64,000 nucleotides of DNA from a virus. Taxonomy: Duplodnaviria > Heunggongvirae > Uroviricota > Caudoviricetes. How positions within the stretch are numbered: the stretch's first letter is position 1; each line of letters starts with the position of its first letter. This document shows positions 11,201 through 14,200 of this stretch, piece after piece. The position numbers are program-made. The stretch is from the IMG/VR virus record IMGVR_UViG_2690316121_000006; one strand, given 5' to 3'.

Positions 11201-14200
11201 CCGTCCGGACGGGAAATGGCGGACGGTCGTCGATTTCAAAACTAACAGCGTTCCCCAGGGCGTCCGCGACCGGGCATTCGAAGAATGGGAGCAGATCATC
11301 ATAGATAACGCATTGCTCCTGAATGCTGATTAAGAACTCTCCGGCCTAGGGAGATTAGGCCGGAGATAAATATACTATATAAACTTAGATATAATATCGT
11401 GAATCTGTTGTAGCGGGATATCTTCCATCTTATTCTTAATAAGGGAGCGGTTAGATGCTGTCAGTGAAGGCCATTTTGTTTTCCAGGCTAGATATGCTCG
11501 CCATGAGTAGCCTGTTTCGTAAGGTTTATTCATATAAGTCATTGAATGTTCAACCGCATGCATGTATTTTTTCTCAAAGTTGGTTCCTTTTACTTCAAAT
11601 AAACCACCGAAATAAATAAGCCATTTTGCCAGGTGTTCATACTGCTCCCATGCGCCAGACTCTTTAGTAAGTTCTATTTTTTTATCTATTATATCACAAA
11701 AAACATTTAATACCTTTTCATCATTCCAGCTATATCCAGATGATGAAATGGAGGAAATGATATGATAAAAAGAATCCTCTAGCTTCAAGAACTCTATTTT
11801 ATACTCTCTTCCGTTTTTTATTACCGATTTGATTGAGTGCCTCAATTTGTCTTTTATTTTTTTTGCTTCTGGAATTTTATCGTTAAGTTTTCTAAAGAAA
11901 TCAGACACCTCTGTTTTATCTATAACCCTAATCCCAAAGCAGGAAAAATAGTAATCTTTAATAGGTTGCAATAGTTCCCCTCGGGAAATAAGGAAAATAT
12001 TGGAGGACATTACGTTGTCCCGTGAAAATACCTTATATTCATTTATAATAGCCTTGAGGTTCGCGTCACTTAGAGAATAGCCAAGGATAACAATAGTGTT
12101 TTCATGTAGAACTGTGCTTAGTTTATTAGAAAAGTAAGAATTACCATTTATAAATCTGAAATAATCCTCGCTAGTAACAACCATGTCTGATGGGGAGTCT
12201 ATAGAACCGTGAACATGGTAGACTTTAACCTCACAATTATATTTTGGAATTGGCAGGCCGGGGGTGATTGTACACGTTCGGTTCTCTCCAGCCAGTTTTT
12301 CTGCTAACTTGTCATAATTTGTCGTAATTACTTTGAATGTGTTTTCTTTGAAAAAGTCTTGAATATATTCAGTTGATGGATCAAGTTCGATTGAGGCTAT
12401 GATTTTCTCAATCTCCTGGTAAATATTTTTCCCCGAAAGTATAAATTTTAGTGCAATAACCTGAGCAGCCTCTTCAAGGCTAAGGTCTTTTGCTTTCCCA
12501 GCAGGAAATAATTCCTCTTTGAGTGAGTCACCATCCTTCAATAAACCGCACAGTTGCTCCAATAAAGATTGCCAACTTGGGGCTTTATCATCAGAAACAG
12601 CCTTTGAAAATCCAGTGCCTGTAAGAAAGCACAGCCTATGTGTAGCCGCTGCATAGGCAATTTCTATATACTCGCTCATTACTTACTCCATTTACTTATA
12701 GTTCTACGGAGAAGTATACCCTAATGCATTGACGTTTATAGATAATTTCCGTTTCCTGTTAATACTCCCTTAGGCACTTGTTTTTGCGCCAGTGTTTGAG
12801 TGCCGCGAATTATGTTAATCAGAGGACTTAGTAACGATGATTCCTGGCGGGCATCAACTTCCTCTGCCATTGCCCTGATGTAGTCTGCGCTTGCAACGTT
12901 GTTGTATTCCGTTGCGAAGCAGCATAACAACGTCAGAACGTGCTCTGTCGTTATTTCGCTCCAGTTGATGTTGAAAAACTCATCGCCTTTTTTGTCGTGT
13001 TCGGAATCGAAGATGCTTTGGTGGAGGATGTATTTGCCGGATTCCTTGCGCGGTAACTTGATCGCTTTCTGGCGTTCCAGCTCCTTGTAAATCTGCATTG
13101 CTTCAATTAGTATCGGCCTGCCGTTCATGAAGGGATCGCGCAACCTTACACGCTGGCCAACTCGACCGGTAATAAAGCTGTTTTCCTCTTCCACCAGCAC
13201 GATAAACCCCTTTTCCTCTTTCTCACGCAATTCACGAAGCAGCTGAAGTTCCATATCGCGGCGGCGTTCAGGGTAGCTGGTCCGCTCAGCCATTATCAGC
13301 TCGTTGTTGATCCATGCAGCAGTCATTGACGCCGGTTTGCCGACGCTCATTGAAACAACGCATATTTTCTTATCCATAGCGCCCCTAAAAAAAAGAAAAG
13401 CCACCAGCGGCGGCTTAGCAATACAACTGAAGGTAGCGCCCGGTACTCAGACTGTGCCGTCCATGGAATATTTGAAAAGGGATCCATCCGTACCGGGCAT
13501 GTGATGATTCTGACTGAAGTCACTTGTCAGTTGTCAATTATTTCAGATTAAAAATAATATATTTATTAGTGCATGATGTTTGCCATCTCATAGGCGTCAG
13601 CCAGCAACTCCATCTCTGACTAGTTCAGCAAGGTGAATTCTTTCTTGCCTCCAACCACACCATCGGCATGAACAGGGACCAGCCAGGGGTATTTTTCTCT
13701 TACTTCAGCCGGTGCTGCATGCTGGTGGTGCCATCTACAAAGGGGCAATTGCTTTTTGTGACAACCCGGCGCGGTACGACCGGAGATATGGTGCAGAGAT
13801 ACCTCTTCAGATATTACTCCATGCATGTAGCAGGCAATGCAGGGGAGAGCGCCAAGAGCATTGGCGATGCTCCGTTCCTCCGCTGTCGGTGTTCGCCCCT
13901 TCAAGCCACGAGATTTTATCTTTACCGCACTTTTCCGCGTTTTGTCGGCTGGTGGGCGCTCTTTCTGTTTAGCGATACGGCGGTCGATAGAATCCCGCAT
14001 TTTCTGATATTGAGATTCTCGCCAGGCGGCGTCAGCAAACTTTTCCCGTTGCCGAGCGATCGCTCGTTCTCTGGCTGCCTTCTGCCACTCGCGGCGCTGT
14101 TCAAGTTTTTGTTCGATTGTTTTCATATGGCAAAAAAAAGGCGGCCTAATGGCCGCCAATGATGTCAAGGAGTGAAGTAATGGCAACGTCTTCGTAGTTG

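Follow-up and report, generated by a model that had tools for sequence, protein, structure and literature searches.

Results

SIR2-family gene downstream of mat in a P1-like phage-plasmid

We analysed a 64,000-nt stretch of DNA (the window) from the IMG/VR record IMGVR_UViG_2690316121_000006, a tailed phage (Caudoviricetes) with the backbone of the phage-plasmid P1. The subject of this study is a gene for a 434-aa SIR2-family protein that lies directly downstream of mat. An earlier note, made from the sequence alone, had described it as an orphan SIR2-like effector in the position where P1 carries its res and mod genes. Our analysis confirmed the gene and its SIR2 features at a level well beyond chance. 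The gene is an intact open reading frame (ORF) (Table 1), and a GGAG ribosome-binding site is found at 12686-12689, 6 nt upstream of its ATG (7-10 nt 5' of it). As had been noted, the gene is AT-rich relative to the backbone. Its GC content is 0.361 as compared to 0.472 for the whole window, within the lowest 0.7% of 1305-bp windows, and this low GC suggests a horizontal origin. The flanks are P1 backbone: mat, ref, c8, cre and cra are located upstream on the same strand, and lxc and ulx, both convergent with the SIR2 gene, are located on the opposite side.

Table 1. Coordinates of the SIR2 cassette, its flanking genes and signals, and other cargo of the window
Feature	Position	Strand	Basis or remark
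SIR2-family gene, 434 aa (allele A)	11375-12679 (including stop codon)	minus	intact ORF with ATG start
N-terminal SIR2 (NADase-type) domain, aa 1-254	11918-12679	minus	motifs, family profile, Foldseek
Rossmann GTGFS motif, aa 21-25			within the N-terminal SIR2 domain
Predicted catalytic N121 codon	12317-12319	minus
Predicted catalytic H157 codon	12209-12211	minus
C-terminal all-alpha helical-repeat domain, aa 255-434	11378-11917	minus	proposed sensor/regulatory domain
Leader of 56 nt, from mat stop to SIR2 ATG	12680-12735	minus	5' cassette junction
Stem-loop with 11-bp stem between the convergent SIR2 and lxc genes	11338-11366	minus	terminator scan; likely terminator, 3' end of cassette
mat (maturation control)	12736-13377	minus	P1 backbone; P1 and RCS47 annotation, PHROG 1837
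lxc (bof), 82 aa	11085-11333	plus	P1 backbone, convergent with SIR2 gene; ORF, P1/RCS47 annotation, junction alignment
C1 operator Omat	13558-13575	minus	P1 annotation
Pmat/LPmat promoter	-35 13532-13537; -10 13507-13512	minus	P1 annotation
Fimbrial operon (chaperone-usher), 170-aa ORF	3826-4338
Fimbrial operon, usher	4412-6853
Fimbrial operon, PapD-type chaperone	6846-7538
Fimbrial operon, 182-aa ORF	7501-8049
DsbA-like gene	8293-8934
315-aa ORF	9324-10271		no family match

The N-terminal half is a SIR2 domain with an intact catalytic dyad

SIR2 nicotinamide adenine dinucleotide (NAD+) glycohydrolases (NADases) are used by the Thoeris, DSR1/2, SIR2-HerA, SPARSA and Kongming systems. The Pfam SIR2_2 profile (PF13289) matched the window protein with 84 bits (cut-off 24.5; E = 1.4e-23) over aa 117-251, which correspond to profile positions 3-139 of 141. 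All four SIR2 motifs picked out by the earlier note (GTGFSKA, ITTNYD, HVHGS and ILGYSLSD) were located. In an alignment of 37 family members that are 52-59% identical to the window protein, the residues G21-T-G-F-S25, T119-T-N121-Y-D123, H155, H157-G-S159, G200-Y-S-L203 and D205 are invariant. N121 and H157, the two residues proposed to be catalytic, are thus among the invariant positions, and in the phmmer alignment to solved DSR2 chains they align with N133 and H171 of DSR2. H171 is the residue changed in the H171A structures among the matched chains.

Two further comparisons extend this agreement. With the family profile, aa 13-257 of the protein aligned with DSR2 residues 38-272, which is the entire SIR2 domain. 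An AlphaFold2 model built from the family alignment (mean predicted local distance difference test, pLDDT, of 81) superposes in its N-terminal half on the SIR2 domains of DSR2, ThsA and KomC (Foldseek E from 1e-11 to 1e-8). Pfam, phmmer and Foldseek agree on the SIR2 fold, and the catalytic dyad is intact and correctly aligned. By homology, the domain would be of the NAD+ glycohydrolase kind. The protein also matched PHROG 7567 (function unknown) end to end, and its sequence places it as a member of this PHROG and of the SIR2_2 superfamily.

The C-terminal half is a helical domain exclusive to the family

The last 180 or so residues had been called an unrecognised helical domain, and the description holds. 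In the predicted model this domain consists of nine helices and is all-alpha. No relative of it was found in Pfam, PADLOC or the PDB. A structure search with the domain returned generic solenoids only, with no specific likeness to the sensor region of DSR2, and the domain showed neither a SLOG nor a Macro fold, nor that of any other known nucleotide sensor.

When the C-terminal domain alone was searched with phmmer against 1.84 billion cluster representatives, 76 proteins were returned. The full-length proteins among them are all 420-480 aa long and carry the domain at the C-terminus, and all ten of the most distant matches, which were checked, have an N-terminal SIR2_2 domain. This shared layout means that the two-domain architecture is fixed and that the C-terminal domain is, by sequence, exclusive to this SIR2 family. 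The C-terminal domain is more divergent than the catalytic domain (mean identity to the window protein of 45% vs. 62%). Within it, W344, Q346, Y347, W353, S379, M380, M383, G390, S392, W393, Y396, W399, W403, N410 and R411 are invariant in the 37 homologues.

The mat-lxc slot carries exchangeable cargo

In P1, the interval between mat and lxc is filled by the EcoP1I res and mod genes. The claim that the SIR2 gene occupies the res/mod slot was right about the location. The orientation differs: in P1, res and mod run counter to mat, while here the SIR2 gene shares the minus strand with it. In phage RCS47 the same interval is empty, with only 39 nt from the mat stop to the lxc stop. When the window was aligned with RCS47, homology decayed over the last ~40 nt of mat and resumed exactly at the lxc stop codon. 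This break defines an insert at 11334-12735 of the window, which consists of the leader, the SIR2 ORF and the hairpin and leaves no room for a second gene. The cassette is therefore about 1.4 kb long, low in GC and composed of one gene. The leader sequence is unrelated to the empty-slot sequence of RCS47. The SIR2 gene was not found in P1, RCS47 or JL22, and it is not a conserved P1 core gene.

Other P1-like genomes carry other cargo at this point. The slot of JL22 (L020 3420-4370) holds, on the opposite strand to mat, a gene for a 316-aa PIN_12-domain protein with a partial PADLOC match to PDC-S34. That of vB_EcoM-673R5 (L011 3670-4769) has a split RelA/SpoT-family protein, and each of its two ORFs matches PDC-S33. 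In a comparison of 77 P1-like elements, res-mod was the first of eight low-GC variable regions (PMC9603915). The mat-lxc slot is a genuine exchange hotspot with defence-type or candidate defence cargo. In Salmonella phage SJ46 (L019 9268-16225), the region downstream of ref is without mat and is filled by a block rich in transposons, which includes blaCTX-M-27, IS903D and Tn1721 genes; the mat-lxc neighbourhood thus also takes up resistance cargo.

Two alleles of the cassette circulate in Escherichia coli

Genes 98% identical to that of the window (allele A) are present in 66 PLSDB plasmids, where they are annotated as "SIR2 family protein". These plasmids are mostly IncY plasmids of about 95 kb from E. 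coli, and Klebsiella and Salmonella plasmids are also represented. The allele A cassette was found in 69 of 5,426 complete E. coli genomes. In about 62 further complete E. coli genomes the match to the cassette is limited to its first 142 nt, and these genomes hold in the mat-lxc slot a second allele (allele B) of 435 aa that is 58% identical to allele A. Allele B represents a cluster (P0006) of 324 member sequences, with examples on the E. coli plasmids pCFS3292-3 (L013 5057-6364) and pMS6198C (L014 5057-6364). Together, one or the other allele occupies the slot in about 131 of the 5,426 genomes (~2.4%).

The leaders of alleles A and B are identical at 55 of 56 positions, while their coding sequences diverge past nucleotide alignability and their 3' hairpins differ. 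This pattern of a near-identical leader before divergent coding sequence indicates that cassettes are exchanged through recombination, with crossovers at the leader or N-terminus and at lxc. The conservation of the leader could reflect function or merely recent recombination.

Beyond the P1-like elements, full-length homologues of 54-61% identity are found in Gamma- and Betaproteobacteria. No copy of the family was detected by megablast and tblastn in 50,697 deposited phage genomes (INPHARED); the copies sit in plasmid and chromosome records. Only two copies of the cassette at 98% identity are chromosomal. One of them is in E. coli APEC17 (NZ_CP178203.1, 3563861-3565262), which suggests a P1-like element integrated in the chromosome.

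No partner gene accompanies the SIR2 gene

The earlier note saw no TIR, HerA, STAND or Argonaute partner nearby, and our searches bear this out. When the 58 remaining window ORFs that reach 120 aa were scanned with PADLOC, none matched ThsB/TIR, HerA, STAND/Avs or Argonaute. The strong PADLOC matches in the window were to the P1 Dmt-type methyltransferase and a TnpB fragment. An SspD-profile match (E = 1.4e-13) and marginal DndC and LmuB matches (E ~1e-4) were also obtained elsewhere in the window, and the ORFs concerned are probably P1 backbone genes.

We then compared the neighbourhoods of the gene in eight contexts (the window, an E. coli lambdoid prophage, Marinobacter, Paracidovorax, Halomonas, Pseudoalteromonas, Stenotrophomonas and Pantoea) by all-against-all blastp, in which all ORFs of 50 aa or more located within 6 kb were included. 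No neighbour was shared across these contexts, except for one pair of cold-shock-domain proteins, 32% identical over 60 aa and placed at unequal distances in their two loci, which we dismissed as a common domain. The individual settings are diverse. On E. coli chromosomes (L002-L005 8001-9311), a lambdoid prophage inserted beside narP/ccm and the yejO autotransporter gene ends, behind its integrase gene, in a 56%-identical homologue of 436 aa (P0082), which thereby takes a typical moron position. The Marinobacter homologue adjoins a type I restriction-modification system and GmrSD in an island, and that of Halomonas is in an island rich in HNH, DUF4145 and DUF87 genes. The Halomonas DUF87 gene is 2.6 kb from the homologue and is not conserved at the other loci. 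The Stenotrophomonas homologue is near toxin/immunity genes and the Pantoea homologue adjoins an HD-domain (dGTPase-like) gene. We also considered mat itself and rejected it as a dedicated partner because it is also present where the slot is empty, in RCS47. By its sequence context, the SIR2 gene is a stand-alone unit.

Comparison with known SIR2 systems

DSR2 of Bacillus subtilis (PDB 8wkt, 8k98) was the best PDB match of the window protein (E = 1.7e-9 with the single sequence and 9.6e-11 with the family profile) and also the top Foldseek match. Like the window protein, it is a single protein in which an N-terminal SIR2 domain is followed by an all-helical repeat region. The two differ in size, as the window protein has 434 aa and DSR2 about 1,000-1,200 aa with a long helical sensor. 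The helical C-terminal region of DSR2 binds the phage tail-tube protein. Membership in DSR2 was tested and rejected: the full-length NCBIfam equivalog model for Dsr2 (NF041819), which has a cut-off of 1400, gave 31.5 bits and covered no more than aa 116-212, and the PADLOC Dsr2 match (E = 2e-8) is limited to the SIR2 core. DSR1 was rejected likewise (Dsr1 equivalog NF041818, 21.4 bits against a cut-off of 1400). By analogy, the window protein would work most like DSR2, yet it is not a DSR2 member.

The protein had also been called ThsA-type. The homology of the SIR2_2 domain to that of ThsA (PDB 6lhx, 7uxt, 8bto) stands, with a PADLOC ThsA1 match of E = 6e-18 and PDB matches of E ~1e-8 to 1e-10, but the features that define ThsA are missing. 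The ThsA profile matches end at aa 222-235 and the C-terminal domain is all-alpha, with no SLOG domain, the part of ThsA that binds gcADPR; there is no ThsB (TIR) gene in the cassette, in the window or common to the homologue neighbourhoods. By sequence, the SIR2 domains of PDC-S25 and DSR2 rank with that of ThsA as the closest to the window protein. The PADLOC candidate PDC-S25, also a predicted stand-alone SIR2 protein, is the best PADLOC match (E = 4.4e-24). PDC-S25 is itself a prediction and the rest of its architecture differs from the window protein: the match covers only the SIR2 core (profile positions 128-277, 150 of 517), and the same is true for allele B, so that membership was rejected.

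SIR2-HerA (Nezha), SPARSA (SIR2-APAZ/short pAgo), Kongming KomC and Lamassu LmuA-SIR2 also use a SIR2_2 NADase effector, and the window protein gave weak-to-moderate matches to the PADLOC "SIR2" and LmuA profiles and to KomC structures. These systems need HerA, pAgo, KomA/B or LmuB/C, none of which adjoins the window gene or is conserved beside its homologues. SIR2-HerA was rejected on the one-gene cassette and the lack of a HerA match in the window. Lamassu was rejected as the LmuA profile matched only over 21-220 of 433 (E = 1e-13) with no adjoining LmuB or LmuC gene. Vassallo et al. validated a Sir2 homologue, which appears to belong to their two-gene PD-T7-2 system (Sir2/HerA-like), if two passages of the paper are rightly paired.

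The EcoP1I res/mod genes, the JL22 PIN gene and the 673R5 RelA/SpoT gene share with the SIR2 gene the insertion point in collinear P1-like genomes. Their proteins and mechanisms are unrelated to it, and res/mod and the JL22 gene differ from it in their strand. Within the searchable papers and defence libraries, no characterisation of the SIR2 family of the mat-lxc slot was found. The SIR2-helical family is a credible, previously undescribed candidate for a single-gene anti-phage system.

Expression signals

The nearest signals upstream of the SIR2 gene are Pmat and LPmat in the ref-mat intergenic region, which are overlapping sigma-70 and late promoters. The block of Omat and Pmat/LPmat is base-for-base identical in the alignment of the window with P1. 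The SIR2 gene is co-directional with mat and 56 nt downstream of it, and a consensus scan called no terminator or sigma-70-like site between the two. Co-transcription with mat, which the earlier note took to be apparent, is on this basis plausible. A hand search of the leader gave weak promoter candidates only, such as TTAACA-N16-TATAAA overlapping the mat stop, which is without the conserved last T; we did not use them as evidence. Between Pmat/LPmat and the mat start codon (13377), a terminator-like hairpin followed by a T-run is located at 13398-13416 on the minus strand. This hairpin, which P1 conserves, may act as an attenuator within the leader of mat.

Discussion

Proposed function of the SIR2 protein

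We think it somewhat more probable than not that the gene encodes a self-contained, one-gene NADase anti-phage system, in which the C-terminal domain senses infection and triggers abortive infection, and which travels as exchangeable cargo of the mat-lxc slot. The closest relatives in sequence and structure (DSR2, ThsA and KomC) are all defence NADases, which supports the predicted catalysis, and the other contents of the slot and several homologue neighbourhoods are of a defence type. Stable carriage of a catalytically intact NADase requires that its activity be kept in check, which makes the family-specific helical domain the obvious candidate for autoinhibition and sensing. That this domain is exclusive to the family and more divergent than the catalytic domain, and that two alleles are swapped behind a near-identical leader, fits the pattern of an effector joined to a sensor. 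In the proposed mechanism, aa 255-434 would keep the NADase inactive before infection. By the precedent of DSR2, the domain would then most probably bind a phage-made protein or another infection cue. The NADase would be released, NAD+ would be depleted and the infection would be aborted, so that the lysogen population and its plasmid-prophage would be shielded from competing phages.

Several observations weigh against this proposal. A promoter of its own was not detected for the SIR2 gene, the mat promoters are C1-repressed and late-activated in P1, and expression in the lysogen is thus not assured. If the mat promoters alone drive the gene, it would be repressed in lysogens and expressed late after induction, which fits poorly with lysogen protection. 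One possible answer is a weak promoter in the 3' end of mat or in the leader, as the consensus scan is limited. The other, and the main rival on this point, is a possible use of the gene in the lytic programme of the element itself. Furthermore, the many invariant aromatic residues of the C-terminal domain are better explained by a conserved ligand, or by an interface within the protein or in an oligomer, than by a surface that follows variable phage proteins. The want of specific similarity to the sensor region of DSR2 also counts here, as does the finding that some homologues, for example that of Pseudoalteromonas, sit among housekeeping genes.

The invariant residues lead to the idea that the protein is an orphan effector, whose C-terminal domain binds a second messenger made by a sensor encoded elsewhere, on the host chromosome or on another mobile element. 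The cluster of invariant Trp, Tyr, Asn, Arg and Ser is compatible with a conserved ligand pocket, and ThsA and KomC, both of which the SIR2 domain matches, are activated by nucleotide signals. We nevertheless regard this as unlikely, given an all-helical domain without SLOG, Macro or any known nucleotide-sensor fold, no ThsB/TIR or Kom partner in the window and no conserved neighbour in the eight contexts. A mobile one-gene cassette that relied on a host partner would also fail in most recipients. The expression signals raise a different question, namely whether the gene is transcribed late with mat and serves the lytic programme of the phage-plasmid or its competition with other elements, through host shutdown or the exclusion of co-infecting rivals. 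Its position 56 nt behind mat in the same direction, the absence of a called terminator or sigma-70-like promoter between them and the identity of the Omat, Pmat and LPmat signals with those of P1 would all agree with such a role, and in P1 the neighbouring genes ulx and darB encode virion-associated anti-restriction functions. However, homologues also occur as chromosomal singletons outside phages, NAD+ depletion late in its own lytic cycle would harm the phage, the res and mod genes in the same slot of P1 are expressed from their own promoters, and the weak promoter considered above could have escaped the scan. A lytic role is in our judgement distinctly unlikely.

Deacylases and ADP-ribosyltransferases are both found in the sirtuin superfamily. 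The RefSeq name "SIR2 family NAD-dependent protein deacylase" would imply that the protein is one of these, acting on a regulatory substrate, instead of an NAD+-depleting effector. That name is generic, the match is to SIR2_2 and not to the classical sirtuin SIR2 family, the nearest characterised relatives are all NADases, and a mobile, low-GC gene in a hotspot suits defence cargo; such an activity is accordingly quite improbable. It would be more surprising still if the gene were an inert passenger or a decaying remnant. Two backbone genes nearby are indeed damaged or lost (ulx is frameshifted and darB replaced), but the SIR2 ORF is intact, full length and 98% identical to the copies in 66 plasmids, its catalytic residues and many of its C-terminal residues are invariant across genera, and its ribosome-binding site and terminator are intact. 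We give this very little credence.

A bolder version of the proposal combines several of these elements. The Trp-rich helical domain of 180 aa would be a new compact sensor, and the two alleles would differ in their trigger. As the only promoters detected are those of mat, the NADase would be deployed during the phage's own lytic development or derepression instead of constitutively in lysogens. We consider this rather unlikely as a whole. If it is true, co-infecting rivals or the host would face an NAD+ weapon timed by the phage.

Other cargo in the window

Where P1 has darB (anti-restriction, 6.8 kb), the window carries different cargo at 2300-10600, with a chaperone-usher fimbrial operon, a DsbA-like gene and a 315-aa ORF (Table 1). 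This region is about 91% identical to P1-like plasmids of Escherichia albertii, where it is annotated with a PefC/AfrB usher and F18 FedE. From the sequence, an adhesin seems to have taken the place of an anti-restriction gene in this phage-plasmid. The ulx gene (10596-11088, plus strand) is split into the overlapping ORFs 10596-10829 and 10741-11088 by a frameshift at or near a G-run at ~10769-10775, and is either a pseudogene or the product of a sequencing error. At 55-453 on the plus strand, a 132-aa ORF with a Cas12f1-like TNB domain represents a TnpB-type fragment of an IS200/IS605-family element. It adjoins a portal-like gene at 486-2207.

Significance

Clinical and animal E. coli commonly carry P1-like phage-plasmids, which also move resistance genes. 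With a presence in ~2.4% of complete E. coli genomes, the SIR2 family could influence which phages, therapeutic ones included, infect such strains. Few self-contained SIR2 immune proteins would be smaller than this one, which would offer a tractable model of how a short helical domain gates an NADase. The mat-lxc slot is the P1 counterpart of the P2 and P4 defence hotspots and may be mined for further systems.

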